Positions 7,820 through 22,486 of a stretch of DNA of 32,000 nt are shown here, one piece after another. Position 1 is the first letter of the stretch. Each line of letters starts with the position of its first letter. The notes under the pieces are model-generated. The model was given only the letters and a program-made list of their open reading frames with translations. It had not been told where the DNA came from and did no database searches. The translations under genes were made by a program, and so were the position numbers. This DNA is from Polyangiaceae bacterium (GTDB lineage: Bacteria > Myxococcota_A > Polyangia > Polyangiales > Polyangiaceae), in NCBI GenBank assembly GCA_035644855.1, contig DASQNT010000467.1, positions 3,050 to 35,049 of the forward strand. The letters run 5' to 3'.

Positions 7820-7885
7820 TGCAGCTCGGCGGGCTTCCTAGCACAGTCCGCGCGCCGCTCGGGCCCCCATGGGGGAGAGAGCGCC

Positions 7886-14098: not shown

Positions 14099-14137
14099 AG
14101 GCCGCCCGGGATACCCGAGGCGGCCTTCGTCGTTTCT
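14099..14137 (+). terminator. Rho-independent terminator candidate
   Basis: Stem AGGCCGCC (14099-14106) pairs with GGCGGCCU (14119-14126). The loop contains a CGGG-AUA-CCCG mini-hairpin, followed by UCGUCGUUUCU. Confidence 0.55.
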
Positions 14138-14502: not shown

Positions 14503-14541
14503 AGGCCGCCCGGGGCTCCCGAGGCGGCCTTCGGCGTTTTT
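14503..14541 (+). terminator. Rho-independent terminator candidate (paralog of 14099-14137)
   Basis: Same stem AGGCCGCC (14503-14510) / GGCGGCCU (14523-14530), followed by UCGGCGUUUUU. Confidence 0.6.
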
Positions 14542-14880
14542 AGCGGCGGAGATTTCGTCGGACGGCGCGCGCTTTACAGCGCGCGGGCGGACAGCTTTGT
14601 CCGCAGCGTCCATAAGCGCTTTGATTAAATCGGACCGGCGCGCGCGAATGCGGGCGAAGCGGCTATGGTCGCCCATTGCGTGTTAAACTCGGTAAGTGTT
14701 CGAAATAAATAGTAAATACCACTCAAATTAATCTTGCGAATAAAAGTCTGAGAGGTTAGTCTAATCGAGTGAGCGGTTGGGAGAGCGAGACGAAATAAAT
14801 CGAGCCTCCTCCCTCCTTTATAGAGAGCGCGCAGGCAGCCTGCTTCACCGCGGCCCTGCGAGCGAGCAATACACGTGTAT

Positions 14881-14963
14881 GTGGGCGCTGAGCATTGGCG
14901 AGCTCAAGTGGCCGTAACCCACCCGTTTATTCTGTGGAGGTTCAACTCCTCCCGCCCACACCA
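14881..14963 (+). tRNA. tRNA-Tyr(GUA), type II, C33
   Basis: Acceptor GUGGGCG/CGCCCAC. D-stem GAGC/GCUC. Anticodon stem AGUGG/CCACC (1 mismatch) with loop CCGUAAC. ~12-nt variable region. T-arm GGAGG-UUCAACU-CCUCC. A73 and CCA encoded. Confidence 0.75.
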
Positions 14964-15130
14964 ATAAGAAGCAATCGCCGGAACGAAACAAAATAAATCG
15001 AACGGTGAATCGAATAAAGAAAGAAGACGAGAGTCAAAGAGAGCGAAACAAACGGGGCGGCGAGATAGACAGACAGAGAGAGATAGAGAGGGTGATATGA
15101 GACGAAAACAGCAGCGCAGAGCGCAAGAAC

Positions 15131-15202
15131 GGGCCCGTAATGTAGTGGAAGCATACTCGCCTTTTAAGCGATGAAGCGGGGGTTCAAGCCCCTCCGGGCC
15201 CA
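15131..15202 (+). tRNA. tRNA-Lys(UUU)
   Basis: Acceptor GGGCCCG/CGGGCCC. D-stem AUGU/GCAU. Anticodon loop CUUUUAA. T-arm GGGGG-UUCAAGC-CCCUC. A73, no CCA. Confidence 0.8.
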
Positions 15203-15210
15203 CGAAATCT

Positions 15211-15282
15211 GGGAGGTTGGCGTCAAGGTGACGCAGCGGATTCTTAATCCGATAGAGGTGGGTTCAATTCCCATGCCTCCCA
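15211..15282 (+). tRNA. tRNA-Lys(CUU)
   Basis: Acceptor GGGAGGU/GCCUCCC. D-stem GCGU/ACGC. Anticodon loop UUCUUAA. T-arm GUGGG-UUCAAUU-CCCAU. A73 followed by CC. Confidence 0.8.
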
Positions 15283-15289
15283 CCGCAGC

Positions 15290-15363
15290 GCCGGGATCGT
15301 CCAATGGCAAGACGGCGGTCTCTGAATCCGCAGATGCAGGTTCGATCCCTGCTCCCGGCTCCA
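15290..15363 (+). tRNA. tRNA-Gln(CUG)
   Basis: Acceptor GCCGGGA/UCCCGGC. Anticodon arm GCGGU-CUCUGAA-UCCGC. T-arm GCAGG-UUCGAUC-CCUGC. U73 plus CCA encoded. Confidence 0.8.
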
Positions 15364-15441
15364 CGCCCGTCAGGGGCAAGCTCTCAACGGAGGGCCGCGG
15401 CTGTTTGACAACTGAATACGACTTGAATGATGAAGTGAGTG

Positions 15442-15468
15442 GGGGACACTCGTGTGTCCCCTTCTTCC
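15442..15468 (+). terminator. GC hairpin plus U-rich tail abutting the next tRNA (terminator-like or processing hairpin)
   Basis: GGGGACAC (15442-15449) pairs with GUGUCCCC (15454-15461), then UUCUUCC, which runs straight into tRNA-Asn at 15466. Confidence 0.35.
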
Positions 15469-15538
15469 AGCGTAGCCAAATGGGAAGGCAGCCGACTGTT
15501 AATCGGCCTATATGGAGGTTCGATTCCTCCCGCTGGAG
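15466..15538 (+). tRNA. tRNA-Asn(GUU)
   Basis: Acceptor UCCAGCG/CGCUGGA with U1-A72 and G73, as in bacterial tRNA-Asn. Anticodon arm GCCGA-CUGUUAA-UCGGC. T-arm GGAGG-UUCGAUU-CCUCC. Confidence 0.85.
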
Positions 15539-15549
15539 CTCATCGAACA

Positions 15550-15570
15550 GGGGGCGCGCAGCCCCCTCTT
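15550..15570 (+). terminator. GC hairpin plus U-rich tail abutting the next tRNA
   Basis: GGGGGC (15550-15555) pairs with GCCCCC (15561-15566), then UCUU. tRNA-Asn copy 2 starts at 15571. Confidence 0.35.
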
Positions 15571-15643
15571 TCTGGCGTCGCCAAATGGTATGGCAGTCGG
15601 CCGTTAACCGACCGTTAGGTGGGTTCGATTCCCCCCGCCAGAG
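15571..15643 (+). tRNA. tRNA-Asn(GUU), C33 variant
   Basis: Acceptor UCUGGCG/CGCCAGA, G73. D-stem GCCA/UGGC. Anticodon arm GUCGG-CCGUUAA-CCGAC. T-loop UUCGAUU, with one mismatch in the T-stem. Confidence 0.7.
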
Positions 15644-15648
15644 CTCAT

Positions 15649-15720
15649 GCCCTCAAAGCTCATAAGGTAGAGCACCTGTCTCGTAAGCAGGGGGTTCCGG
15701 TTCGATTCCGGATGGGGGCT
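15649..15720 (+). tRNA. tRNA-Thr(CGU)
   Basis: Acceptor GCCCUCA/UGGGGGC. D-arm GCUC-AUAAGGUA-GAGC. Anticodon arm CCUGU-CUCGUAA-GCAGG. T-arm UCCGG-UUCGAUU-CCGGA. Confidence 0.8.
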
Positions 15721-15737
15721 CCGCAGGACGTAGATAC

Positions 15738-15810
15738 GGGTCGTGTGCAGGTCTGGTGATTGCGACGGTCTGAAAAGCCGTAGAACTCGGTTCGACTCCG
15801 AGACGACCCA
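15738..15810 (+). tRNA. tRNA-Phe(GAA)
   Basis: Acceptor GGGUCGU/ACGACCC. Anticodon arm ACGGU-CUGAAAA-GCCGU. T-arm CUCGG-UUCGACU-CCGAG. A73 followed by CC. Confidence 0.85.
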
Positions 15811-15812
15811 CC

Positions 15813-15834
15813 GGGAGGGCTGGCCCTCCCTATT
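15813..15834 (+). terminator. GC hairpin plus short U/A tail abutting the next tRNA
   Basis: GGGAGGG (15813-15819) pairs with CCCUCCC (15824-15830), then UAUU. tRNA-Pro starts at 15835. Confidence 0.3.
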
Positions 15835-15907
15835 CGGGATGTAGCCTAGTGGAAAGGCGCCTCATTTGGGGTGAGGAGACTCGTCGGTTCGATTCCGGCC
15901 ATCCCGA
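15835..15907 (+). tRNA. tRNA-Pro(UGG)
   Basis: Acceptor CGGGAUG/CAUCCCG with C1-G72 and A73, typical of bacterial tRNA-Pro. D-arm GCCU-AGUGGAA-AGGC. Anticodon arm CCUCA-UUUGGGG-UGAGG. T-arm GUCGG-UUCGAUU-CCGGC. Confidence 0.85.
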
Positions 15908-15926
15908 CCGCGAGAGCGAAGGTTGT

Positions 15927-16002
15927 GTGGGTGTTACTCGTCTGGTGACGAGGGCAGACTGTGACCCTGCGGAGGCGGGTTCGATTCCCGTACACCCAAC
16001 CA
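15927..16002 (+). tRNA. tRNA-His(GUG) with encoded G-1
   Basis: G at 15927 precedes acceptor UGGGUGU/ACACCCA. D-arm CUCG-UCUGGUGA-CGAG. Anticodon loop CUGUGAC. T-arm GCGGG-UUCGAUU-CCCGU. A73 (not the usual C73) plus CCA encoded. Confidence 0.8.
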
Positions 16003-16130
16003 GGAGCTGCGAGCGGGCATGAGCCCGGGGCGCTCCGATAAACGTTTGAATCGTCCGGCATGGACCGGGCGCGTCGAGGCCAAGAGCCGAGGCGCTCCCT
16101 GCCGCGCCGGGCCGGAGAAAGGAAAGGAAC

Positions 16131-17789
16131 GTGGCCAACTACCTCAAGCACCTCGTTTCGCTCTTCACGCCCCAGGGCGAGAAGGCCCGGAGCGATCAGG
16201 CTCAGAACAACGCGGGCGGGTTCGTATTCGTCCTCGATACGTGGGCGAAGCTCGACCGCTGGCTCATCCTCGGCACCGAGGGCGGGTCGTACTACGCGAC
16301 CGAGCGCCAGATGACGCGCGATAACGCGAAGACGATCCTGGAGTGCCTCGCCGAGGACGGGATCCGGACGGTGACGCGCATCGTCGAGATCAGCGACGCC
16401 GGCCGCGCTCCGAAGAACGAGCCGGCCATCTTCGCCCTCGCGATGGCGGCCGGCGCGGACGACCCGGCCACGCGCAAGGCGGCCCTCGAGGCCCTGCCGA
16501 AGGTCTGCCGCACCGGGACGCACCTCTTCCACTTCGCTCGCGACGTGGAGGGCTTCCGGCGCTGGGGACGCGGCCTCCGGACGGCCGTCGCTGCCTGGTA
16601 CAACGACAAGCCGGCCGACCGGCTCGCCTACCAGGCCGTGAAGTTCCAGCAGCGCGACGGCTTCAGCCACCGCGACCTGCTCCGCCTCGCGCACCCGAAG
16701 GCGCCCACCGCGCAGCACAACGCGATCTACCGCTGGATCGTGGGTGGGCAGGAGGCGTTCGCGAAGGCGCCCCCAAAGGGCGATGTCCTCAAGTACGAGG
16801 ACCTGCCGGCGCTCATCCAGGCGTTCGAGCGGCTGCGCGCCGCGAAGGACGCGAAGGAGGTCGCCGCGCTCGTCCGCGAGCACAGGCTCACGCACGAGAT
16901 GCTCCCGACCGAGTGGAAGAACCATTCGGTCGTATGGGAGGCGCTGCTCCAGGACATGCCGATGACGGCGATGATCCGGAACCTCGCGAAGATGACCAAC
17001 GTCGGCCTCTTGACCCCGATGAGCGACGCGGCCCGCAAGGTCGCCGCCGAGCTTATGGATGAGGGCCGCCTGCGGAAGGCTCGCGTGCACCCGATCGCGC
17101 TCCTGTCGGCGATGAAGGTCTACGAGCAGGGTCGCGGTGTGAAGGGGAGCCTCACGTGGACGCCTGTCCGCGAGATCGTCGACGCGCTCGACAGCGCGTT
17201 CTACCTCGCCTTCAGGGCAATCGAGCCAACGGGCAAGAAGCACCTGCTCGCGCTCGATGTCTCGGGGTCGATGACGTGCGGTGAGATCGCCGGGGTGCCG
17301 GGGCTCACGCCGCGCGTCGCGAGCTCGGCGATGGCGATGGTGACGGCGCGGACGGAGGCGAGCTTCGCGACCATCGCGTTCACGGCGGCGAGCGGCGGGT
17401 ATGGCGGGATGCACGGCGGCGGGACGCCTGGCGTTGCGTCGCTCGACATCTCGCCCCGGCAGCGGCTGGATGATGTCCTGAAGCTGGTGGATAACCTCCC
17501 CTTCGGCGGGACGGACTGCGCGCTGCCGATGGTTTGGGCGACCCGGAACAAGGTCGAGGTGGACACGTTCGTGGTCTACACGGACAACGAGACGTGGGCC
17601 GGCTCGGTGCATCCGTTCCAGGCGCTCCGCGAGTACCGGCAGAAGATGGGCCGGCCGGCGAAGCTCATCGTCGTTGGAATGACGGCGACGGACTTCACCA
17701 TCGCCGACCCGACCGACGCCGGGATGATGGACGTTGTCGGATTCGATACGGCCGCGCCGCAGATCATGGCCGACTTCGCCCGCGCGTAA
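16131..17789 (+). CDS. rsr: Ro60 orthologue (TROVE domain + C-terminal vWA/MIDAS domain)
   Basis: GTG start preceded by GGAGAAAGGAAAGGAAC. The N-terminal sequence (FVFVLDTWAKLDRWLILGTEGGSYYATERQ ... GRAPKNEPAIFALA) is characteristic of TROVE/Ro60. The C-terminal vWA has the MIDAS motif LLALDVSGSM and VVYTDNETW. 552 aa, the usual Ro60 size. Confidence 0.9.
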   Translation: MANYLKHLVSLFTPQGEKARSDQAQNNAGGFVFVLDTWAKLDRWLILGTEGGSYYATERQMTRDNAKTILECLAEDGIRTVTRIVEISDAGRAPKNEPAIFALAMAAGADDPATRKAALEALPKVCRTGTHLFHFARDVEGFRRWGRGLRTAVAAWYNDKPADRLAYQAVKFQQRDGFSHRDLLRLAHPKAPTAQHNAIYRWIVGGQEAFAKAPPKGDVLKYEDLPALIQAFERLRAAKDAKEVAALVREHRLTHEMLPTEWKNHSVVWEALLQDMPMTAMIRNLAKMTNVGLLTPMSDAARKVAAELMDEGRLRKARVHPIALLSAMKVYEQGRGVKGSLTWTPVREIVDALDSAFYLAFRAIEPTGKKHLLALDVSGSMTCGEIAGVPGLTPRVASSAMAMVTARTEASFATIAFTAASGGYGGMHGGGTPGVASLDISPRQRLDDVLKLVDNLPFGGTDCALPMVWATRNKVEVDTFVVYTDNETWAGSVHPFQALREYRQKMGRPAKLIVVGMTATDFTIADPTDAGMMDVVGFDTAAPQIMADFARA

Positions 17790-17831
17790 GAAGGACCAGC
17801 GCGCAGTACAAACAGCGAGCCGGGCGCGCGG

Positions 17832-17864
17832 CGGTCACCCTCCCCAAGAGAAGGAGGGCGGCCG
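17832..17864 (+). terminator. Long GC hairpin downstream of rsr (possible terminator or processing element, no clear U-tract)
   Basis: CGGUCACCCUCC (17832-17843) pairs with GGAGGGCGGCCG (17853-17864) with one mismatch and a 9-nt loop. Confidence 0.3.
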
Positions 17865-17885
17865 CCGCGCCCCGGGGAGCGTTTC

Positions 17886-17979
17886 GCCGGATGCGCCTGA
17901 TTGGAGGCATCTGTCCTCAGATTTTGCCTGGAAGGGCCGCCCGTGGACAGTTATCGAGGTTCAATTCCAACATCCGGCT
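17886..17979 (+). ncRNA. Degenerate tRNA-shaped / Y-RNA-like element (X0)
   Basis: 8-bp terminal stem GCCGGAUG/CAUCCGGC. D-arm GCCU-GAUUGG-AGGC. Where the anticodon arm should be there is a long stem CUGUCC (17911-17916) / GGACAG (17945-17950). It encloses UUUGCC-UGGAAG-GGCCG, a weakened copy of the UUGCCCG/CGGGCCGR helix of elements A-D. Then UUAUC and a T-loop-like GGUUCAAUUCC with a poor stem. Followed by a U-rich tail. Confidence 0.35.
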
Positions 17980-17990
17980 CTCGTTTTATA

Positions 17991-18115
17991 GTGACCGTAG
18001 CTTAACTGGTAGAGCGCTAAAAACACCGTCGCCGCCCCTTGCCCGGATCGGGCCGATGGATGACGGTTATCGACTGTTAATCGAGAAGATGCGGGTTCGA
18101 GTCCCGCCGGTCACG
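17991..18115 (+). ncRNA. tRNA-shaped RNA with Ro60-binding-type hairpin (Y-RNA-like element A)
   Basis: tRNA acceptor GUGACCG/CGGUCAC, D-arm GCUU-AACUGGUA-GAGC and T-arm GCGGG-UUCGAGU-CCCGC, G73. After the D-arm comes a ~45-nt arm with outer stem ACCGUC (18025-30) / GACGGU (18062-67). Its apical helix is UUGCCCG (18039-45) - GAU - CGGGC-C-GA (18049-56), that is G-C pairs, a bulged C, then G.U and A-U. A small hairpin follows, AUCGA-CUGUUAA-UCGAG (18069-85). Confidence 0.65.
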
Positions 18116-18120
18116 CTGTC

Positions 18121-18243
18121 AGGGCTGTAGTTTAATGGTAGAACGACATGCCGTCTTCAAACATTTGCCCGAGCCGGGCCGGATGGAGATGGTTACCGGA
18201 TTTGAAACCCTGGAAGGTGCGGGTTCGACCCCCGCCGGTCCTG
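18121..18243 (+). ncRNA. tRNA-shaped RNA with Ro60-binding-type hairpin (Y-RNA-like element B)
   Basis: Acceptor AGGGCUG/CGGUCCU. D-arm GUUU-AAUGGUA-GAAC. T-arm GCGGG-UUCGACC-CCCGC. G73 followed by ACUUUUUUG. Inserted arm: outer stem GCCGUC (18150-55) / GAUGGU (18188-93). Apical helix UUGCCCG (18165-71) - AGC - CGGGC-C-GG (18175-82). Confidence 0.65.
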
Positions 18244-18251
18244 ACTTTTTT

Positions 18252-18323
18252 GCCCTCGTATGCATCTGGTGAGGCAGCTTGACTGTCGATCAAGTGAGGG
18301 GAGTTCGATCCTCCTCGGGGGCG
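18252..18323 (+). tRNA. tRNA-Asp(GUC)
   Basis: Acceptor GCCCUCG/CGGGGGC. Anticodon arm CUUGA-CUGUCGA-UCAAG. T-arm GGGAG-UUCGAUC-CUCCU. G73. Confidence 0.85.
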
Positions 18324-18330
18324 CCTTATG

Positions 18331-18458
18331 GTGGCTGTAGCTCAATTGGTAGAGCGCTAAAAACGCCGTCGCCGCCCCTTGCCCGGAGACGGGCCGATGG
18401 ATGACGGTTATCGATTTGGATCGAGAGGTTGCGGGTTCGAGCCCCGTCAGTCACCCCA
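18331..18458 (+). ncRNA. tRNA-shaped RNA with Ro60-binding-type hairpin (Y-RNA-like element C, paralog of A, CCA encoded)
   Basis: Acceptor GUGGCUG/CAGUCAC. D-arm GCUC-AAUUGGUA-GAGC. T-arm GCGGG-UUCGAGC-CCCGU. C73 then CCA (18456-58). Inserted arm: GCCGUC (18365-70) / GACGGU (18403-08). Apical helix UUGCCCG (18379-85) - GAGA - CGGGC-C-GA (18390-97). The side hairpin has only a 4-6-nt loop (UCGA-UUUGGA-UCGA). Confidence 0.65.
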
Positions 18459-18459
18459 T

Positions 18460-18480
18460 GACGTATAGCTTAACGAAGTA
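18460..18480 (+). pseudogene. tRNA 5'-fragment (acceptor/D-arm remnant)
   Basis: GACGUAUAGCUUAACGAAGUA resembles the 5' part of elements A/C (..CCGUAGCUUAACUGG..). No downstream arms are present. Confidence 0.3.
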
Positions 18481-18481
18481 T

Positions 18482-18554
18482 GTCCCCGTGTCCGAACGGA
18501 GAAGGAGCTGGTTTCCTAAACCAGTGTGTGCAGGTTCGACTCCTGCCGGGGACG
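18482..18554 (+). tRNA. tRNA-Arg(CCU)
   Basis: Acceptor GUCCCCG/CGGGGAC. D-stem UCCG/AGGA. Anticodon arm CUGGU-UUCCUAA-ACCAG. T-arm GCAGG-UUCGACU-CCUGC. G73. Confidence 0.8.
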
Positions 18555-18558
18555 CCCC

Positions 18559-18679
18559 AGGGCTGTAGTTTAACGGCAGAACATCATACCGTTCTACGAT
18601 CCTTGCCCGACTCGGGCCGGAGCAGAACGGTTATCGGAACCTCACTCCGAAGGTGCGGGTTCGACTCCCGCCGGTCCTG
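18559..18679 (+). ncRNA. tRNA-shaped RNA with Ro60-binding-type hairpin (Y-RNA-like element D, paralog of B)
   Basis: Acceptor AGGGCUG/CGGUCCU. D-arm GUUU-AACGGCA-GAAC. T-arm GCGGG-UUCGACU-CCCGC. G73. Inserted arm: ACCGUUC (18588-94) / GAACGGU (18625-31). Apical helix UUGCCCG (18603-09) - ACU - CGGGC-C-GG (18613-20). Side hairpin UCGGA-ACCUCAC-UCCGA. Confidence 0.65.
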
Positions 18680-18687
18680 GACTTTAT

Positions 18688-18758
18688 GCGCCCGTATGCA
18701 ACTGGTACGCAGCTTGATTGTCGATCAAGTGATGGGAGTTCAATTCTCCTCGGGTGCG
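18688..18758 (+). tRNA. tRNA-Asp(GUC), second copy
   Basis: Acceptor GCGCCCG/CGGGUGC. Anticodon arm CUUGA-UUGUCGA-UCAAG. T-arm GGGAG-UUCAAUU-CUCCU. G73. Confidence 0.8.
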
Positions 18759-18782
18759 CCGGAGCCGAGAGGCTCCACACAT

Positions 18783-18853
18783 AGGATGTAGAGTCATGGT
18801 GACCGCGGAGCCTCCAAAACTCCTGCGAGAGGGTTCGATTCCTTCACATCCTG
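18783..18853 (+). tRNA. tRNA-Trp(CCA)
   Basis: Acceptor AGGAUGU/ACAUCCU with A1-U72 and G73, as in bacterial tRNA-Trp. Anticodon loop CUCCAAA. T-arm GAGGG-UUCGAUU-CCUUC. Short 3-bp D-stem GUC/GAC. Preceded by hairpin GGAGCC-GAGA-GGCUCC (18761-76). Confidence 0.75.
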
Positions 18854-18873
18854 CCGGGTCCGACGAGGACCAT

Positions 18874-18944
18874 GGGGATGTAGTTCAAAGGAAGAACCGC
18901 TGCTTCGCGAGCAGCAGATGCGGGTTCGAGTCCCGCCCTCTCCA
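18874..18944 (+). tRNA. tRNA-Ala(CGC)
   Basis: Acceptor GGGGAUG/CCUCUCC with the G3:U70 alanine identity pair and a U6/C67 mismatch. Anticodon arm GCUGC-UUCGCGA-GCAGC. T-arm GCGGG-UUCGAGU-CCCGC. A73. Confidence 0.8.
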
Positions 18945-18970
18945 CCGCAGCCGTATTGATTGAGTGTTCA

Positions 18971-19041
18971 GGGGATGTAGTTCAAAGGAAGAATCGCCGC
19001 TCGGCATGCGGCAGATGCGGGTTCGAGTCCCGCCTTCTCCA
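18971..19041 (+). tRNA. tRNA-Ala(GGC), C33 variant
   Basis: Acceptor GGGGAUG/CUUCUCC with G3:U70 and a U6/U67 mismatch. Anticodon arm GCCGC-UCGGCAU-GCGGC. T-arm GCGGG-UUCGAGU-CCCGC. A73. Confidence 0.7.
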
Positions 19042-19063
19042 CCGCAGGATTAGTAGGGTTTTC

Positions 19064-19134
19064 GGGGACGTAGCTCAAAGGAAGAGCCGCCGCCTTGCAA
19101 GCGGCAGATGCGGGTTCGAGTCCCGCCTTCTCCA
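19064..19134 (+). tRNA. tRNA-Ala(UGC)
   Basis: Acceptor GGGGACG/CUUCUCC with G3:U70 and a C6/U67 mismatch. Anticodon arm GCCGC-CUUGCAA-GCGGC. T-arm GCGGG-UUCGAGU-CCCGC. A73. Confidence 0.8.
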
Positions 19135-19139
19135 CCGAC

Positions 19140-19212
19140 GCCACCCAGGCCCAGGAGGCGGGGCACCTGTTTGGTACACAGGAGACGGCGGGTTCGATTC
19201 CCGCGGGTGGCT
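19140..19212 (+). tRNA. tRNA-Thr(GGU)
   Basis: Acceptor GCCACCC/GGGUGGC. D-stem GCCC/GGGC. Anticodon arm CCUGU-UUGGUAC-ACAGG. T-arm GCGGG-UUCGAUU-CCCGC. Confidence 0.85.
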
Positions 19213-19226
19213 CTACGTAAACGTTC

Positions 19227-19300
19227 GCGGGCATCGTCCAACGGTAGGACCTGAGTCTTCCAAACTCATTGTGCGGGTTCGACTCCCGCTGTCCGCTCCA
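19227..19300 (+). tRNA. tRNA-Gly(UCC)
   Basis: Acceptor GCGGGCA/UGUCCGC. Anticodon arm UGAGU-CUUCCAA-ACUCA. T-arm GCGGG-UUCGACU-CCCGC. U73 plus CCA encoded. Confidence 0.9.
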
Positions 19301-19319
19301 GGCAGCAGCAGTAATTTTT

Positions 19320-19390
19320 GCGGTGGTAGTTCAACGGTAGAATTCGAGGATGCCAGCCTTGAGATCCGGGTTCGATTCCCGGTCACCGCA
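19320..19390 (+). tRNA. tRNA-Gly(GCC)
   Basis: Acceptor GCGGUGG/UCACCGC. Anticodon arm CGAGG-AUGCCAG-CCUUG. T-arm CCGGG-UUCGAUU-CCCGG. A73 followed by CC. Confidence 0.8.
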
Positions 19391-19401
19391 CCGTTCTTAT
19401 T

Positions 19402-19473
19402 GAGCCGGTTCTCTGGCGAGGTGCTCGCTCTGCAAAAGCGGGCGTGAGGGTTCAATTCCCTCCCGGCTCTCCA
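19402..19473 (+). tRNA. tRNA-Cys(GCA)
   Basis: Acceptor GAGCCGG/CCGGCUC. Anticodon arm UCGCU-CUGCAAA-AGCGG. T-arm GAGGG-UUCAAUU-CCCUC. U73 (Cys identity) plus CCA encoded. Compact D-arm. Confidence 0.75.
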
Positions 19474-19474
19474 C

Positions 19475-19547
19475 GCCTCGGTAGCATAACGGAGAGTGCA
19501 GGCGGCTTCTACCCGCCAATGTGGGGGTTCGACTCCCTCCCGGGGCG
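19475..19547 (+). tRNA. tRNA-Arg(UCU)
   Basis: Acceptor GCCUCGG/CCGGGGC. D-arm GCAU-AACGGAGA-GUGC. Anticodon arm GGCGG-CUUCUAC-CCGCC. T-arm GGGGG-UUCGACU-CCCUC. Starts 1 nt after the CCA of tRNA-Cys. Confidence 0.8.
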
Positions 19548-19575
19548 CCTTGATAAATGACTTAAACAAATAGAA

Positions 19576-19615
19576 TCTCACCTCGGAAACGCGGGTTCGA
19601 ATCCCGCTGAGGACG
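19576..19615 (+). pseudogene. Orphan 3' half of a tRNA-Glu-like gene
   Basis: UCUCACCUCGGAAAC-GCGGG-UUCGAAU-CCCGC-UGAGGAC-G parallels the 3' half of tRNA-Glu at 19629-19704. It is preceded by AT-rich sequence, and no matching GUCCUCA 5' strand lies nearby. Confidence 0.5.
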
Positions 19616-19628
19616 CCGACGCACATCT

Positions 19629-19704
19629 GTCCCCATCCTTGCTAGCTGGTTCAGGCAGCCGGGCCCTCATCCCGGAAACGCGGGTTCGAATCCCGCTGGG
19701 GACG
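19629..19704 (+). tRNA. tRNA-Glu(CUC), C33 variant
   Basis: Acceptor GUCCCCA/UGGGGAC with G73 (Glu-like). D-stem CUUG/CAGG. Anticodon arm CCGGG-CCCUCAU-CCCGG. T-arm GCGGG-UUCGAAU-CCCGC. Three nt instead of one lie between the D and anticodon stems. Confidence 0.7.
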
Positions 19705-19708
19705 CTAA

Positions 19709-19783
19709 GGTACGCGACGGGTTTCAACACGCACAGCTCGAGCCATCCGAAAGGATGTGTGCGCGCCTTATCCGCCGCGTACC
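19709..19783 (+). ncRNA. Unclassified tRNA-sized structured element
   Basis: 8-bp terminal stem GGUACGCG (19709-16) / CGCGUACC (19776-83). An internal coaxial hairpin CGCACA..CAUCC-GAAA-GGAUG-UGUGCG carries an 8-nt bulge GCUCGAGC. There is no canonical T-loop or anticodon arm. Confidence 0.3.
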
Positions 19784-19791
19784 GCAAATCT

Positions 19792-19866
19792 CTCCCTGTC
19801 TCGGCGGTATCCGAGCACCGGTCTACGAAATCGGTTGTCTCCGTTCAACTCGGAGCAGGGAGGCCA
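19792..19866 (+). tRNA. tRNA-Arg(ACG), atypical D-arm
   Basis: Acceptor CUCCCUG/CAGGGAG. Possible 5-bp D-stem CUCGG/CCGAG. 6-bp anticodon stem ACCGGU/AUCGGU with loop CUACGAA. T-arm CUCCG-UUCAACU-CGGAG. G73 plus CCA encoded. Confidence 0.65.
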
Positions 19867-19869
19867 AGC

Positions 19870-19940
19870 GCCTTTGTTCTGGCGGCACCAGAGGCAAGCC
19901 TCCGAAGCTTGCTATCCGGGTTCAACTCCCGGCAAAGGCT
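19870..19940 (+). tRNA. tRNA-Arg(CCG), extended anticodon stem
   Basis: Acceptor GCCUUUG/CAAAGGC. D-arm CUGG-CGGCA-CCAG. 7-bp anticodon stem GGCAAGC/GCUUGCU with loop CUCCGAA. T-arm CCGGG-UUCAACU-CCCGG. Confidence 0.65.
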
Positions 19941-19946
19941 TGTAAA

Positions 19947-20018
19947 CGCGATGGCTCAGGGTGAGAGGCGGCCCTCATAAGGCTGTCCGTGAGGGTTCGA
20001 TTCCCTCCGTCGCGACCA
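19947..20018 (+). tRNA. tRNA-Met(CAU) (elongator or Ile2-type; not initiator-like)
   Basis: Acceptor CGCGAUG/CGUCGCG. Very compact D-arm (CUC-AGGGUGA-GAG). Anticodon arm CGGCC-CUCAUAA-GGCUG, which lacks the three consecutive G-C pairs of initiators. T-arm GAGGG-UUCGAUU-CCCUC. A73 plus CCA encoded. Confidence 0.6.
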
Positions 20019-20019
20019 T

Positions 20020-20097
20020 CGAGGTGTGGCTCAATCTGGTTAGAGCACCGCGTTCGGGACGCGGGGACTGCCGGTTCGAATCCGGCCACCTCGACCA
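20020..20097 (+). tRNA. tRNA-Pro(CGG)
   Basis: Acceptor CGAGGUG/CACCUCG with C1-G72 and A73. D-arm GCUC-AAUCUGGUUA-GAGC. Anticodon arm CCGCG-UUCGGGA-CGCGG. T-arm GCCGG-UUCGAAU-CCGGC. CCA encoded. Starts 1 nt after the previous CCA. Confidence 0.9.
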
Positions 20098-20117
20098 TCT
20101 CTCCAAAAAACATTTTC

Positions 20118-20194
20118 GCGGGGCGAGCCAGCTGGAGACGGCGCCTGGCCTACACCCAGGTCTCGCATGGGTTCGATTCCCTGGCCCCGTACCA
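20118..20194 (+). tRNA. tRNA-Val(UAC), C33 variant
   Basis: Acceptor GCGGGGC/GCCCCGU (G1.U72). D-arm GCCA-GCUGGAGA-CGGC. Anticodon arm CCUGG-CCUACAC-CCAGG. T-loop UUCGAUU with a weak T-stem. A73 plus CCA encoded. Confidence 0.65.
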
Positions 20195-20227
20195 TCCGGA
20201 GCGGATGTACTCGTCGCCCCGGCGGGA

Positions 20228-20299
20228 GGACCACAAGATCTGGTCGATCTGCGGCGTCTTATAAGCGCCTGCGGCGGGGTCCGATTCCCCGGTGGTCCA
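20228..20299 (+). tRNA. tRNA-Ile(UAU)-like, non-canonical T-loop
   Basis: Acceptor GGACCAC/GUGGUCC. D-arm GAUC-UGGUC-GAUC. Anticodon arm GGCGU-CUUAUAA-GCGCC. T-arm CGGGG-UCCGAUU-CCCCG, with C where U55 is expected. A73 followed by CC. Confidence 0.55.
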
Positions 20300-20346
20300 C
20301 CGGAGATAGAGAGAGGTATTGAGGAGCAATTCGGCTGAAGAATTCA

Positions 20347-20422
20347 GGGGTAGGACGGTACGGTTTACCTGGGCTCTCTGATACGGAGCCCGGCCCGTGT
20401 TCGACTCACGGCTACCCCACCA
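20347..20422 (+). tRNA. tRNA-Ile(GAU)
   Basis: Acceptor GGGGUAG/CUACCCC. Anticodon arm GCUCU-CUGAUAC-GGAGC. T-arm CCGUG-UUCGACU-CACGG. A73 plus CCA encoded. Confidence 0.8.
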
Positions 20423-20423
20423 C

Positions 20424-20498
20424 GCGGAGCTCGCTCTCTGGGAGAGCACCGGCTCGACAAGCCGGGCCAGGTGGGTTCGATTCCCGCGCTCCGTACCA
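20424..20498 (+). tRNA. tRNA-Val(GAC), C33 variant
   Basis: Acceptor GCGGAGC/GCUCCGU (G1.U72). D-arm GCUC-UCUGGGA-GAGC. Anticodon arm CCGGC-UCGACAA-GCCGG. T-arm GUGGG-UUCGAUU-CCCGC. A73 plus CCA encoded. 1-nt spacer on each side. Confidence 0.7.
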
Positions 20499-20499
20499 T

Positions 20500-20583
20500 G
20501 TCCAGGTGGCGGAATGGCATACGCGACGGTCTCAGAAACCGGCCCTTCGGGGTATGAGGGTTCGAGTCCCTCTCTGGACACCA
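20500..20583 (+). tRNA. tRNA-Leu(CAG), type II
   Basis: Acceptor GUCCAGG/UCUGGAC. D-arm GCGG-AAUGGCAUA-CGCG. Anticodon loop CUCAGAA. Variable arm CCC-UUCG-GGG. T-arm GAGGG-UUCGAGU-CCCUC. A73 plus CCA encoded. Confidence 0.85.
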
Positions 20584-20608
20584 TTGCTTAACTTCATGAT
20601 TGATACAT

Positions 20609-20691
20609 GCCACCGTGGCGGAATGGCATACGCGACAGGCTGAGAACCTGTGCTCCCACGGAGTATGAGGGTTCGACTCCCTCCGGTGGTA
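20609..20691 (+). tRNA. tRNA-Leu(GAG), type II
   Basis: Acceptor GCCACCG/CGGUGGU (G1.U72). Same D-arm as the Leu(CAG) gene. Anticodon arm ACAGG-CUGAGAA-CCUGU. Variable arm CUCC-CA-CGGAG-like. T-arm GAGGG-UUCGACU-CCCUC. A73 followed by CC. Confidence 0.8.
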
Positions 20692-20717
20692 CCTCGTAGT
20701 ATCCACAAAAAGACCAG

Positions 20718-20750
20718 AGCCCCGGCGCCGCCGGGAGCTATCATTTCTTA
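20718..20750 (+). terminator. Terminator-like hairpin after the second tRNA block
   Basis: AGC-CCCGGC (20718-26) pairs with GCCGGG-(A)-GCU (20730-39), followed by AUCAUUUCUUA. Confidence 0.4.
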
Positions 20751-20811
20751 CGCAGCTTGATCCGCGCCGGGAGGCGACAATGAAGAAGAAGAGGCGAAGG
20801 TGAGGTGAACC

Positions 20812-21333
20812 ATGTCCGCGCGAACGCTCCTTTTGACCCCCTGGATGATGCCGCACAAGATCATCTCGTGGCAGGACGCCGTCACGATGATGTTCCTCAA
20901 CAAGGTGGAAGTGCTCGAGGCCTACGACGAGGAGATCGTCTCGCCGTCGCTGGCGATCCGCATGCCCGCCGTGGTCCGGCTCAAGAGGTCCGCGAGCAAC
21001 ACGAAGCGCGGCGTTAAGTTCAGCCGCATCAACGTCTTTACCCGCGACGGGTTCCGCTGCCAGTACTGCGGCGACAAGAAGCGGATGGGCGAGCTCAACT
21101 ACGACCACGTGATCCCCCGTATGCAGGGAGGAAAGACGGTCTGGGAGAACATCGTGACGGCGTGCTACCCCTGCAACAACAAGAAGAGGGGCCGCACGCC
21201 CGAGCAGGCTGGGATGACGCTCCTCTCGCGACCAATCAAGCCGAAGTCGCTGCCGCTCACGCCGGCGCTCCTCGACCTCCGGACGATCCCGCCCGCGTGG
21301 TCAGGATACTGCGCGTCGATCGGCGCCGCGTAA
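20812..21333 (+). CDS. HNH endonuclease
   Basis: RBS GAAGGUGAGGUG about 5 nt upstream of the ATG. HNH/zinc motif DGFRCQYCG...NYDHVIPRMQGGKTVWENIVTACYPCNNKK. 173 aa. Confidence 0.9.
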   Translation: MSARTLLLTPWMMPHKIISWQDAVTMMFLNKVEVLEAYDEEIVSPSLAIRMPAVVRLKRSASNTKRGVKFSRINVFTRDGFRCQYCGDKKRMGELNYDHVIPRMQGGKTVWENIVTACYPCNNKKRGRTPEQAGMTLLSRPIKPKSLPLTPALLDLRTIPPAWSGYCASIGAA

Positions 21334-21373
21334 GAACCAACCTACGTCATTGATCAAAAAATGAGCGCCTCGG

Positions 21374-21403
21374 GCGCGCTCGCTCGGTGCTGAGCGAGCG
21401 CGC
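21374..21403 (+). other. Perfect 12-bp inverted repeat downstream of the HNH gene
   Basis: GCGCGCUCGCUC (21374-85), a 6-nt loop, then GAGCGAGCGCGC (21392-403). An A-tract precedes it, and no U-tract follows. Confidence 0.5.
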
Positions 21404-21417
21404 TCGGGCCCTCGCCT

Positions 21418-21492
21418 CGGGGTGTAGCTTAGCCAGGCAAAAGCGCGTGACTGGGGGTCACGAGATCGCTGGTTCAATTCCAGTCACCCCGA
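21418..21492 (+). tRNA. tRNA-Pro(GGG)
   Basis: Acceptor CGGGGUG/CACCCCG with C1-G72 and A73. Anticodon arm CGUGA-CUGGGGG-UCACG. T-arm GCUGG-UUCAAUU-CCAGU. Confidence 0.8.
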
Positions 21493-21511
21493 CCGGGTTT
21501 TAGCAGTTCAA

Positions 21512-21599
21512 GGAAGCGAAGCCGGCGAGGCGCCGGGCCCGCCTGGAAAGCGGTGCGCACCCATTCTCCGGGTGTGGGATTCGAGTTCTCTCGCTTCCG
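21512..21599 (+). tRNA. tRNA-Ser(GGA), type II
   Basis: Acceptor GGAAGCG/CGCUUCC with G73 (Ser-like). D-stem GCC/GGC. Anticodon stem CCGC/GCGG with loop CUGGAAA. Variable arm CACCC-AUUCUCC-GGGUG. Weak T-arm UGGGA-UUCGAGU-UCUCU. Confidence 0.7.
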
Positions 21600-21611
21600 C
21601 CGAGCACAGAA

Positions 21612-21694
21612 GGAGAGCAAACCGGCCCGGGGCCGGCGCCGTCTTGAAAACGGATGGACGGGCGACCGTTGGGGTTCGACACCTCTGTTCTCCG
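21612..21694 (+). tRNA. tRNA-Ser(UGA), type II
   Basis: Acceptor GGAGAGC/GUUCUCC, G73. Anticodon stem CCGU/ACGG with loop CUUGAAA. Variable arm ACGG-GCGA-CCGU. T-loop UUCGACA. Confidence 0.75.
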
Positions 21695-21708
21695 CAGCTC
21701 ACGATTCT

Positions 21709-21793
21709 GGAAGGTGAATCGGCCAGGGGCCGAGCCTGTTTCGAAAGCAGTGCGATGTCAGACGGCATTGGGGATCGAGACCTCCGCCTTCCG
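21709..21793 (+). tRNA. tRNA-Ser(CGA), type II, atypical T-loop
   Basis: Acceptor GGAAGGU/GCCUUCC, G73. Anticodon stem CUGU/GCAG with loop UUCGAAA. Long variable arm. T-loop AUCGAGA, with A at position 54. Confidence 0.65.
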
Positions 21794-21825
21794 CCGGTCA
21801 ACGAGAAGTACCAAAACAAACGTAC

Positions 21826-21899
21826 GCGGTGATGGTAGAGCGGTAGAATCTGAGAGTCCCATCCTCAGGATCCGGGTTCGATCCCCGGTCGCCGCACCA
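21826..21899 (+). tRNA. tRNA-Gly(CCC)
   Basis: Acceptor GCGGUGA/UCGCCGC. D-arm GUAG-AGCGGUA-GAAU. Anticodon loop GUCCCAU with stem UGAGA/CCUCA (1 mismatch). T-arm CCGGG-UUCGAUC-CCCGG. A73 plus CCA encoded. Confidence 0.75.
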
Positions 21900-21911
21900 G
21901 TTCACGAGAAC

Positions 21912-21985
21912 GTCCTCATATCAGCTAGCGGTCAGGCGGTCGGCCTTTCAATCCGACGACGCGGGTTCGATTCCCGCTGAGGACA
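21912..21985 (+). tRNA. tRNA-Glu(UUC)
   Basis: Acceptor GUCCUCA/UGAGGAC. Anticodon loop CUUUCAA with stem UCGGC/UCCGA (terminal mismatch). T-arm GCGGG-UUCGAUU-CCCGC. A73 followed by CC. Confidence 0.75.
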
Positions 21986-22009
21986 CCGGAGCGCGCAGGA
22001 ATGCGTCAC

Positions 22010-22044
22010 GCGCGGCTCGCCCCTCCCTACCGGGCGACCCGCGC
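22010..22044 (+). other. Imperfect GC-rich inverted repeat between tRNA genes
   Basis: GCGCGG-C-UCGCC (22010-21) pairs with GGCGA-C-CCGCGC (22033-44), 11 bp with one C/C mismatch and an 11-nt loop. Confidence 0.4.
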
Positions 22045-22068
22045 GCCGCGTCTGGGGCGCTCTCCTAT

Positions 22069-22157
22069 GGAAGCTGAATCGGCAGAGGTGCCGAGCCCGG
22101 CCGCTAACCGGTGCGTGCCCTCACGGGCATGGTGTTCGACTCATCCGGCTTCCGCCA
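22069..22157 (+). tRNA. tRNA-Ser(GCU), type II, C33 variant
   Basis: Acceptor GGAAGCU/GGCUUCC, G73 plus CCA encoded. Anticodon stem CCGG/CCGG with loop CCGCUAA. Variable arm UGCCC-UCAC-GGGCA. T-loop UUCGACU. Confidence 0.7.
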
Positions 22158-22163
22158 ACAACC

Positions 22164-22235
22164 GCCGCCGTAGCTCAATCGGCAGAGCTCCTGTCTTGTA
22201 AACAGGCGACACCGGTTCGAGCCCGGTCGGCGGCT
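22164..22235 (+). tRNA. tRNA-Thr(UGU)
   Basis: Acceptor GCCGCCG/CGGCGGC. D-arm GCUC-AAUCGGCA-GAGC. Anticodon arm CCUGU-CUUGUAA-ACAGG. T-arm ACCGG-UUCGAGC-CCGGU. Confidence 0.9.
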
Positions 22236-22268
22236 CCCCGCCCCCCTCCCTTCATCCAGATTGACCGC

Positions 22269-22342
22269 TCGGGGATCGTCTAATGGCAGGACAGGAGCCT
22301 TTGAAGCTCCCAGTCGTGGTTCGAGCCCACGTCCCCGAACCA
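22269..22342 (+). tRNA. tRNA-Gln(UUG)
   Basis: Acceptor UCGGGGA/UCCCCGA (U1-A72). D-arm GUCU-AAUGGCA-GGAC. Anticodon arm GGAGC-CUUUGAA-GCUCC. T-arm CGUGG-UUCGAGC-CCACG. A73 plus CCA encoded. Confidence 0.85.
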
Positions 22343-22486
22343 ATTCAGTCCATGCACGATGGCCGCGCACAGGAACGCTATCGGCAGGTGAGCCGAGCCG
22401 CGCTCGGGAGAGCTTTCAAGCTCCGCGGCCTTTCCGTATCATGCCGCTCCCGATCACGCCCCAGGGCATCACCACGAGGTGTTTTC

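Follow-up and report, generated by a model that had tools for sequence, protein, structure and literature searches.

A tRNA gene array organised around rsr in a Polyangiaceae bacterium and its putative Y RNAs in tRNA topology

A same-strand tRNA array with embedded rsr and HNH genes

We analysed a stretch of 32,000 nucleotides (nt) from a Polyangiaceae bacterium, hereafter the window (contig DASQNT010000467.1, positions 3,050 to 35,049 of the forward strand; assembly GCA_035644855.1). Positions 14881-22342 of the window (7,462 nt) contain 42 genes resembling those for transfer RNA (tRNA), all of them on the + strand. Ten of these genes precede rsr (16131-17789, + strand), which codes for a bacterial Ro60 ortholog of 552 amino acids (Pfam TROVE, 6.7e-48; vWA_Ro60, 3.1e-64); 23 lie between rsr and a gene for an HNH endonuclease of the array-associated type (20812-21333, + strand, 173 amino acids; Pfam HNH_5/HNH), and nine follow the latter. 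A first-pass annotation of this DNA had named both protein-coding genes and had listed 42 same-strand tRNA genes in 10/23/9 blocks. The two gene identities were confirmed by Pfam, and count and layout were reproduced exactly with ARAGORN. However, it had treated rsr as a mere interruption of the array and had overlooked five further tRNA-like elements at 17886-18679. As described below, these elements appear to be Y RNAs, and it is around them and rsr that the array is organised.

With default settings, ARAGORN returned 37 calls (15131-22342, all on the + strand), 36 of which were genuine, and at a threshold of 90% it added Tyr(GUA), Val(UAC) and Ser(GGA), Ser(UGA), Ser(CGA) and Ser(GCU), giving 42. 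The remaining default call, an 'Asn' at 18044-18116, and a 'Ser' at 18169-18245 were dropped as tRNA genes, both being parts of longer RNAs. The ARAGORN frame for Glu(CUC), 19635-19705, was wrong, and reading of the sequence placed the true gene at 19629-19704. The gathering score of the Rfam tRNA model (at least 29 bits) was reached by 31 of the 42 genes, while 11 remained below it, so most calls were not rejected by the covariance model. Related loci were used for comparison throughout: L002 and L003 from a metagenome-assembled genome (MAG), L004 from Sorangium, L005 from Chondromyces crocatus, and L006-L085, which are 80 Rsr loci with one genome per species.

The genes that match the Rfam tRNA model are given here with their scores; all are on the + strand and are ARAGORN default calls unless stated otherwise. 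The first block begins with Tyr(GUA) (14881-14963; ARAGORN 90%; 35.5 bits; C8, C33; 90% identical to the L002 ortholog), followed by Lys(UUU) (15131-15203; 60.7 bits), Lys(CUU) (15211-15284; 47.3 bits), Gln(CUG) (15290-15363; 57.8 bits), Asn(GUU) (15466-15539; 61.6 bits), a second Asn(GUU) with C33 (15571-15644; 46.2 bits), Thr(CGU) with A8 (15649-15722; 60 bits), Phe(GAA) (15738-15812; 47.9 bits), whose G8 is kept in Polyangiaceae orthologs, Pro(UGG) (15835-15909; 60.1 bits) and His(GUG) with encoded G-1 and CCA (15928-16002; 44.7 bits). The second block contains Asp(GUC) (18252-18325; 44.3 bits), Arg(CCU) (18481-18557; 60.4 bits), a second copy of Asp(GUC) (18688-18760; 54.3 bits), Ala(CGC) with G3:U70 (18874-18946; 59.8 bits), Ala(GGC) with C33 (18971-19043; 55.1 bits), Ala(UGC) (19064-19136; 63.6 bits), Thr(GGU) (19140-19213; 52.5 bits), Gly(UCC) (19227-19300; 62.1 bits), Gly(GCC) (19320-19392; 58.1 bits), Arg(UCU) (19475-19549; 57.5 bits), the re-framed Glu(CUC) (partial match, 30.9 bits), whose C33 is kept in orthologs, Met(CAU) (19947-20018; 34.3 bits), Pro(CGG) (20020-20097; 67.1 bits), Val(GAC) with C33 (20424-20498; 42.4 bits), Leu(CAG) (20500-20583; 49.5 bits) and Leu(GAG) (20609-20693; 55.7 bits). 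Behind the HNH gene are Pro(GGG) (21418-21494; 61.9 bits), Gly(CCC) (21826-21899; 37.5 bits), Glu(UUC) (21912-21987; 39.3 bits), Thr(UGU) (22164-22237; 68.2 bits) and Gln(UUG) (22269-22342; 57.7 bits).

Across 7.46 kb, which include rsr and the HNH gene, the 42 genes reach a density of 5.6 per kb, or 4.2 per kb when only the Rfam-passing genes are considered. Spacers range from 1 to about 170 nt, with 1-nt spacers at Cys/Arg, Met/Pro, Ile/Val and Val/Leu as first annotated, and the array is non-periodic, its repeats being local duplications only. All 20 amino acids and every isoacceptor family listed in the first-pass annotation were found again with ARAGORN, and the set of the window covers 58 of the 61 sense codons; decoders for UUA, UUG and CUA (Leu with UAA, CAA or UAG anticodon) were not found by ARAGORN in this set. 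Its statements that the array lacks an initiator tRNA and the window ribosomal RNA (rRNA) also held: the sole Met(CAU) is of the elongator type, with a paired 1:72 position (C1-G72) and without the three G-C pairs (GGG/CCC) in the anticodon stem, and Rfam detected no rRNA in the window. Because of their location on tRNA genes, open reading frames (ORFs) that overlap the array, such as the one annotated in the contig at 20150-20584 on the - strand, were regarded as spurious. Terminator-like matches within the array were mostly tRNA arms on the wrong strand.

Elements downstream of rsr resemble Y RNAs with ordinary tRNA ends

Shortly downstream of rsr we found four elements of 121-125 nt, U1 to U4, and directly after the gene a shorter fifth copy, U0. 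The five elements are found on the + strand, 97-890 nt past the rsr stop codon and hence within 4 kb of rsr, interleaved with tRNA genes: U1 at 17991-18115, U2 at 18121-18243, U3 at 18331-18455, where it is followed by C-CCA, and U4 at 18559-18679. The Rfam tRNA model aligns three of these stretches with an insertion of about 50 nt (U2, 39.6 bits; U3, 42.6 bits; U4, 41 bits). By reading of the sequence, U1-U4 share a 7-bp acceptor stem (GUGACCG/CGGUCAC in U1), a normal D arm, a long hairpin, a short V hairpin and a normal T arm. The position of the anticodon arm is thus taken by a closed helix that carries a Ro60-binding motif. The elbow consensus of the units is GTAGCTCA..GG.AGAGC and G..GGTTCGA.TCC. 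U0 (17886-17978, + strand) was recognised as a degenerate Y RNA-like element by sequence reading and as a member of the motif repeat family. It has an 8-bp terminal stem, a D-like hairpin, a closed helix with GGGCCGCCCGUGGACAGUUAUC and a T-loop-like GGUUCAAUUCC; it is kept in L002 at 91% identity, and its own fold is not significant.

The motif is located on the 3' strand of the long hairpin and reads CGGGCCGAUGGAUGACGGUUAUCGA in U1 (18049-18073) and U3 and CGGGCCGGAGCAGAACGGUUAUCGG in U4. Across 111 units from the compared loci, GGGCCGR-N9-GUUAYC is invariant. The same spacing is found in human Y1 (GGUCCGA-N9-GUUAUC), and human Y RNA1 begins with GGCUGGUCCGAAGGUAGUGAGUUAUC (primer in PMC3928194). 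The Rfam consensus of the nematode stem-bulge RNAs (sbRNAs), UCGGUCCGGaGucgaUGGGUUAUC, and the 5' strand with which the canonical YrlAs of Gordonia phage Cashline begin, GCGGGCCGGAGUUGAUCGGUUACC, also match the unit motif. GNCGAAN0-1G and YUAY have been described as elements of YrlA (PMC4201824), and as judged from sequence the unit motif corresponds to them, although it is not a literal GNCGAA. In Cashline (L087), the canonical YrlA at 3807-3934 matches RF01656 (nematode stem-bulge RNA) at 31.8 bits, with a threshold of 38, which shows how far the conservation of the Ro60-binding module reaches. In L005, at about 12230-12300, the Ro60 motif GGGCCGAUGGUGAAUGGUUACCG was observed in a free-standing hairpin closed by GGAGCUUU/AAAGCUCC without a tRNA-like domain, which may be a YrlB-like minimal Y RNA.

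Minimum free energy (MFE) z-scores of single units were between -0.7 and -2.1, and for U4 the MFE fold is the five-helix structure (z = -2.1). With such weak scores, folding of single sequences is no proof of structure, which is instead provided by covariation. A covariance model, R1, was seeded with five in-register units from the window and L002, and the remaining units were realigned with Infernal; a MAFFT alignment of ten first units was dropped as seed, as it mis-registered the 5' strand of the long helix. R1 scored 128.2 bits on U2 and 136.4 bits on U4, both seed members, 107.6 bits on U1, and 80.9 bits on U3, which was not in the seed. Full-length matches beside rsr had 50-98 bits and were always on the rsr strand, while ordinary tRNAs reached at most 48 bits. 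Among the 150 best R1 matches, 111 were long units, and these came from 63 sources, namely the window and 62 of 83 Rsr loci. Units also occur at loci with few or no tRNAs from Armatimonadota, Chloroflexota, Gemmatimonadota, Longimicrobium and Desulfonema. In the R1 alignment, 96.6% of cells pair, versus 38-51% with slid partners, a value that leans toward structure as the alignment was fitted by the model, and 28 of 29 pairs change on both sides.

From several features of the 111 units, the RNA ends are assigned to the acceptor stem. This stem is paired to 98.6%, occurs in 55 distinct sequences and shows four to six pair types per position; the loop closing the Ro-motif helix is mostly 3-4 nt long, a single isolated unit is present at 29 loci, and 15 of the 111 units have an encoded N-CCA after this stem, versus a background of 1.6%. 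The D and T helices are paired to at least 99%. Canonical YrlAs, in turn, have a closed acceptor hairpin and their ends in the Ro60 helix, and have been described as 'circularly permuted tRNAs' (bioRxiv 10.1101/312249). Such closed acceptor hairpins are seen in phage YrlAs (CAUCGGAC-GCGA-GUCUGGUG and CACCC-UUCG-GGGUG). On actinophage loci, R1 gave a single match of 33.9 bits, which spanned two tandem canonical YrlAs and thereby exposed the permutation.

A second model, R2, was built from 30 bacterial units that were cut in the apical loop and whose acceptors were closed with GAAA, with no phage sequence included. At full length, R2 retrieved canonical YrlAs from two phages, Gordonia phage Cashline (90.3 and 65.1 bits) and Mycobacterium phage Sprinklers (71.2 bits), whereas the Rfam YrlA model gives 42 and 36 bits at these phage sites. 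Since a model made of permuted units retrieves canonical phage YrlAs, the units are shown, at the level of sequence models, to be homologs of YrlA-type Y RNAs, with what we read as an un-permuted tRNA topology and a normal 7-bp acceptor stem. Of the 83 loci, L065, L071, L074, L075, L077, L079, L080, L081 and L084 matched R2 strongly and R1 weakly; all Sorangium, Chondromyces and Polyangium loci and many others matched R1 without R2, and both models matched only where units are in tandem, isolated units of the tRNA topology escaping R2. This sorting indicates that both topologies are found among Rsr loci that are close relatives. Where U1 and U2 of the window meet, R2 detects a complete YrlA of canonical topology that spans the junction (18049-18171, 91.6 bits), which illustrates how a tandem duplication can convert one topology into the other.

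The Rfam YrlA model itself was of little help. Its gathering score of 69 bits was not reached in the window (at most 25 bits in the right register) or in nine related loci. Matches in the window at 18994-19110, 18049-18174 and elsewhere (19.8-28.7 bits) were rejected as evidence because ordinary tRNA dimers score equally, an artefact of which Chen et al. have warned (PMC4201824).

Another reading of the units is that they are ordinary tRNA genes interrupted by short introns or insertion elements, not Y RNAs: with introns allowed, ARAGORN reports Val, Asp and Leu genes with 'introns' of 29-46 nt for three of them, and the Rfam tRNA alignment likewise contains a large insertion. We find this barely credible. 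The copies disagree in the position of the 'intron' and in the resulting anticodon, conservation is highest in the insert, which holds the Ro60 motif and a covarying helix, and the units always adjoin rsr on its own strand, their permuted copies retrieving canonical YrlAs. Known bacterial tRNA introns, moreover, are group I introns in the anticodon loop.

Non-canonical tRNAs are conserved

The 11 genes below the Rfam threshold fall into two groups, all on the + strand. Five gave sub-threshold matches to the Rfam tRNA-Sec model only: Trp(CCA) (18783-18855; A8, 3-bp D stem; 27.1 bits; 97% identical to L002), Cys(GCA) (19402-19473; 33 bits), Val(UAC) (20118-20194; ARAGORN 90%; C33; 22.6 bits), Ser(UGA) (21612-21695; ARAGORN 90%; 42.5 bits, threshold 47) and Ser(GCU) (22069-22157; ARAGORN 90%; C33; 36.1 bits). 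The other six had no Rfam match at E <= 5 and are recognised by their cloverleaf only: Arg(ACG) (19792-19866), Arg(CCG) (19870-19940; 94% identical to L002), Ile(UAU) (20228-20301) and Ile(GAU) with an unusual D arm (20347-20422) as default ARAGORN calls, and Ser(GGA) (21512-21601) and Ser(CGA) (21709-21795) at 90%. In the ARAGORN folds, C33 replaces the canonical U33 in seven array genes, and U8 is missing in about a third (approximately 14), among which the Glu(CUC) call is a framing error.

Identity to L002 is 94.9% in the RNA genes and 73.2%, with many gaps, in the spacers, and this difference indicates that the RNA genes of the array are under purifying selection. Genes rejected by Rfam are among the best conserved, with 100% identity for Val(UAC), 98.7% for Arg(ACG) and 98.6% for Ile(UAU). 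The stems of the array tRNAs remain paired. Several of the deviations recur in orthologs of other genera (A8 in Trp, G8 in Phe, Met and Ile(GAU), C8 in Tyr, C33 in Glu(CUC) and Val(GAC)), so these are selected features and not random decay. From sequence, the non-canonical tRNAs may be decoding tRNAs, nuclease-resistant substitutes or decoys.

Gene content has nevertheless changed between the two relatives. The second Asn gene, Ala(CGC) and Ala(GGC) are duplicates absent from L002, which in turn has Leu(CAA) and a second intact Glu(CUC) (L002 5976-6050); of the latter, repeat families revealed in the window only an orphan 3' half at 19576-19617 (+ strand), a pseudogene fragment. The Ala(CGC), Ala(GGC) and Ala(UGC) genes (18874-19136) are tandem duplicates with 86-90% identity that differ in the anticodon, and together with the second Asn gene (15571-15644) they point to recent duplication with anticodon change. 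Short GC-rich hairpins (GGGGGACACTCGTGTGTCCCC, GGGGGCGCGCAGCCCCC and GGGAGGGCTGGCCCTCCC) were also observed in the first-block spacers 15363-15466, 15540-15570 and 15813-15834; they may be processing or pause signals.

Conservation of the module in Polyangia and its recurrence in further phyla

In the compared loci, rsr is very often flanked by tRNA genes of its own strand, with essentially none on the opposite strand. The combination of rsr, same-strand tRNAs and an HNH gene was found in L002-L019 (Polyangiaceae), in Kofleriaceae, Haliangiales, Chloroflexota, Verrucomicrobiia and others, and also beside related Rsr genes in Gemmatimonadota, Actinomycetota and cyanobacteria. It was present in every Polyangiaceae genome sampled. 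Across Polyangia the module is conserved, and it reappears in further phyla. Of 47 loci with five or more tRNAs, 36 had an HNH homolog downstream of rsr, versus two of 35 loci with fewer. Within Polyangiaceae, synteny is partial (Lys-Asn-..-His / rsr / Asp..Ala..Gly..Pro..Leu-Leu / HNH / Ser), and flanking genes vary between genera. Rsr of the window is 93% identical to that of a Polyangiaceae MAG and about 70% to those of Sorangium, Chondromyces, Polyangium and Minicystis, and HNH identity falls in step with Rsr identity (95, 70, 66, 50%). That the module occurs in all Polyangiaceae sampled, and that Rsr and HNH diverge in parallel with taxonomic distance, looks like a long vertical residence.

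Array size differs by genus, with 6-13 tRNA genes in Sorangium, 26-28 in Polyangium and 35-48 in Chondromyces, Minicystis and the window. A set of 6-13 tRNAs cannot be the housekeeping set of Sorangium. For Minicystis rosea, 88 tRNAs in total have been reported (PMC8436480), at least 42 of which we found in this one locus. Since orthologous arrays range from 6 to about 48 genes, and given the Minicystis rosea count and the missing initiator and Leu decoders, the accessory status of the window set is well supported, but only indirectly. The first-pass annotation had proposed an 'accessory or alternative decoding set'. The accessory part is borne out by these observations, while decoding by the whole set is put in doubt by the 11 genes that fail the model and the roughly one third with non-canonical U8 or U33.

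The surroundings of the array are those of an ordinary chromosome, with genes for Maf, OmpA-domain, PCC, gamma-glutamyltranspeptidase, methyltransferase and MopE-repeat proteins. The longest ORF for the gamma-glutamyltranspeptidase (22283-24427) starts inside Gln(UUG); the gene call of the contig starts about 200 nt later (at about 22487), so this ORF is over-extended. Upstream of the array, a stretch of 1.27 kb without called genes (13615-14880) contains two copies, 89% identical, of a terminator-like 38-nt GC-rich hairpin followed by a T run on the + strand (14098-14135 and 14502-14539), which may mark the ends of small transcripts. At the array head, an AT-rich direct repeat (GAGCGAGACGAAATAAATCGA at 14783-14803 and GAACGAAACAAAATAAATCGA at 14981-15001) brackets the Tyr gene. 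The arrangement is reminiscent of the direct repeats in the promoter by which the Anabaena trn operon is regulated, but the sequence is unrelated. In Chondromyces crocatus (L005, CP012159), the HNH gene of the array is followed at 17001-21695 by an RNA-repair gene pair, which codes for a protein with RNA ligase and AAA_33 kinase domains and for a large protein of the MJ1316 / 2'-5' RNA ligase / poly(A) polymerase type.

Interpretation and alternative explanations

We consider it likely that the locus is an operon-like array of the L type in which 42 supernumerary, partly non-canonical tRNAs surround rsr, Y RNAs and an HNH gene, with a role in stress that is proposed because of the analogy with the Anabaena array and the rsr-Y RNA-rtcBA operon of Salmonella. 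The whole block would be transcribed as one or a few polycistronic precursors, from which the Y RNAs would be released by RNase P and by 3' trimming or CCA addition, like their tRNA neighbours, and would then bind Rsr. In M. smegmatis, published work has identified YrlA as a substrate of RNase P and of the CCA-adding enzyme. The module might be switched on by translational or RNA-damage stress, such as ribosome-targeting antibiotics, tRNA-cleaving toxins or starvation. Under such conditions, the extra tRNAs could top up, replace or shield the housekeeping pool, the particle of Rsr and Y RNA could handle damaged or misfolded tRNA and rRNA, and the HNH enzyme might mobilise or maintain the block, as has been proposed for other arrays.

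Regarding the origin of the units, we speculate, with slightly less than even confidence, that they represent the ancestral, un-permuted form of YrlA. A tRNA of the array would have gained a Ro60-binding extension of its anticodon arm, would still be matured by RNase P and the CCA-adding enzyme, and would have given rise to permuted YrlA by tandem duplication, with Ro60 as a dedicated partner of accessory tRNA operons across phyla.

Some points weigh against these proposals. Expression, processing, charging and Rsr binding of these RNAs are predictions. The source of the window is known here from one metagenome contig of 39.8 kb, which places its housekeeping tRNAs outside the view, and the window itself has no RNA-repair genes beside the array. 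A scan for Sigma-70 promoters found no sites, although such a scan is uninformative for a myxobacterium. R1 scores on the window and L002 copies are circular, these being the source of the seed, and E-values of home-made models are rough. The topology of the tandem units (U1-U2 and those of L002, L019, L033 and others) is ambiguous, since a canonical YrlA can be read across the junction at similar scores. Finally, part of the set may not decode, as 11 of 42 genes fail the tRNA covariance model and seven lack U33.

The main rival explanation is that the module is cargo of a mobile element or phage, now fixed or decaying, and that its tRNAs serve as anti-defence against anticodon nucleases and not as a host stress system. 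Myxococcus phage Mx1 carries TROVE, tRNA, peptidyl-tRNA hydrolase and HNH genes within 7 kb, its HNH protein, encoded between tRNA-Leu genes, being 41% identical to that of the window. Homologs of Ro60 are encoded in 354 phage records, and an HNH with 37% identity is found inside a 28-tRNA array (10 and 18 tRNAs flanking it) on the M. intracellulare plasmid NZ_CP084587. tRNA arrays have been proposed as anti-defence systems (PMC12803027), and conserved anticodon-loop oddities such as C33 would suit nuclease evasion. The change of flanking genes with genus and the drop in GC content to 0.58-0.63 over the array, compared to about 0.68 outside, would fit as well, although tRNA genes in a 68% GC genome are expected to give such a drop. 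However, neither the 32-kb window nor the flanks of L002-L005 held phage, integrase or conjugation genes, the genes around the array are of an ordinary chromosomal kind, and the module is found in all Polyangiaceae sampled, with Rsr and HNH identities decreasing together with taxonomic distance. We therefore regard a cargo origin as unlikely.

It is highly unlikely that the array is a largely non-functional relic whose duplicated tRNAs drift to pseudogenes. The failures in the Rfam model, the loss of U33 and U8, the orphan Glu half and a content that differs even from the relative with 93% Rsr identity could be taken as decay, and three of 26 genes are pseudogenes in the Anabaena array (PMC8421152), but the genes are far better conserved than their spacers, those rejected by the model are among the best conserved, and the same non-canonical nucleotides are found in other genera with stems still paired. 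Even less probable is that the organism has its housekeeping tRNA set in one place. The coverage of all 20 amino acids and 58 sense codons and the view limited to a single contig would allow it, while the missing initiator and UUA/UUG/CUA decoders, the many non-canonical genes, the 6-13 genes in orthologous arrays of complete Sorangium genomes, and the about 40 or more further tRNAs that M. rosea has elsewhere (PMC8436480 versus our locus count) argue against it.

Neither long tRNA arrays nor the Ro60/Y RNA particles of bacteria are well understood, and research has treated them separately. In this locus they are joined in a single conserved genetic unit, composed of Ro60, Y RNAs, about 40 tRNAs that are selected yet non-canonical and an HNH enzyme, with related versions in several phyla. 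This raises the question of whether the extra tRNAs and the Ro60 particle act jointly in response to tRNA damage or a block of translation. If Y RNAs have the ends of ordinary tRNAs, their production from a tRNA operon would become understandable, and tandem duplication offers a visible route from a tRNA to a permuted YrlA, which would refine the idea of a 'dimeric tRNA' origin (bioRxiv 10.1101/312249). Such units are probably mis-annotated elsewhere as intron-containing tRNAs, as pseudo-tRNAs or not at all, as current Rfam models miss them.

Comparison with known systems

tRNA array units have been defined by a minimum of 20 tRNA genes and a density of at least two per kb (Tran et al., PMC4758250), and the window has 42 (31 of them Rfam-passing) at 5.6 per kb. 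L-arrays are described as non-periodic, co-transcribable sets of up to 43 genes in the same orientation with a linked HNH homing endonuclease (PMC8421152), and by its sequence the locus has these hallmarks. L-arrays are further described as patchily distributed, in a way that indicates horizontal transfer, and as silent until translational stress induces them; the module studied here occurs in all Polyangiaceae sampled, which looks vertical, and also beside related Rsr genes of other phyla. What was known already are long tRNA arrays with HNH genes; what appears to be new is the internal rsr, the un-permuted Y RNAs and the Myxococcota host. Our literature search found no published account of Myxococcota arrays, of rsr inside bacterial arrays or of un-permuted Y RNAs, but it did not cover survey supplements, so prior mention is possible. 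That Y RNAs adjoin tRNAs in some bacteria had been noted (bioRxiv 10.1101/312249).

Translation inhibitors or ribosome-targeting antibiotics induce the L-array of Anabaena sp. PCC 7120, which improves survival and shares its regulation with its HNH gene and rtcB (PMC8421152). This trn operon and the window share a long, non-periodic, same-strand array with short spacers, isoacceptors that are supernumerary (in the window, probably so), a linked HNH gene, some pseudogenes, and neighbours for RNA processing or repair (rtcB in Anabaena, rsr in the window, RNA ligases in C. crocatus). Unlike it, the array of the window is chromosomal and kept through the family Polyangiaceae, not sprinkled across species, and has an embedded rsr, Y RNAs and conserved non-canonical nucleotides at U8 and U33. 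Mycobacterium array units (PMC5966550, PMC12803027) also have an HNH gene in mid-array and a tRNA-Ile(UAU); those arrays lie on plasmids or prophages with XRE regulators, in contrast to the ordinary chromosomal flanks here, and neither rsr nor Y RNA units were found in the mycobacterial array examined (M. intracellulare plasmid).

A Ro60-family gene inside tRNA clusters is also known from archaea, mostly haloarchaea, where 20 of 29 clusters have a TROVE-domain gene (PMC6333295); unlike in the window, Y RNAs have not been described there, and kinship to the module is without support. Mycobacterium cluster C phages and Mx1 carry a Ro60 gene plus tRNAs, and Mx1 also Pth and a related HNH gene. 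In Mx1 (L088, OR576727), positions 870-7880 hold on one strand TROVE, tRNA-Gly, peptidyl-tRNA hydrolase, tRNA-Leu, HNH and tRNA-Leu, and neither R1 nor R2 detected a Y RNA in this interval. The Ro60 phages differ from the window in having only 2-4 tRNAs beside the Ro gene, Y RNAs of canonical topology and a phage context.

In Salmonella, rsr and Y RNAs are part of the rtcBA RNA-repair operon (PMC7790460, PMC4201824). Like the YrlAs of Salmonella and phages (PMC4201824, bioRxiv 10.1101/312249), the units of the window share the strand of rsr, are no more than about 1 kb away from it and occur in several copies per locus. They also show the same succession of a Ro60-binding sequence, YUAY, V hairpin, T arm, acceptor-like stem and D arm, with the elbow nucleotides. 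In contrast to those YrlAs, they are downstream of rsr, interleaved with real tRNAs and below the Rfam YrlA threshold, and their ends would be free and lie at a 7-bp acceptor stem, with a loop of 3-4 nt closing the Ro60 helix.

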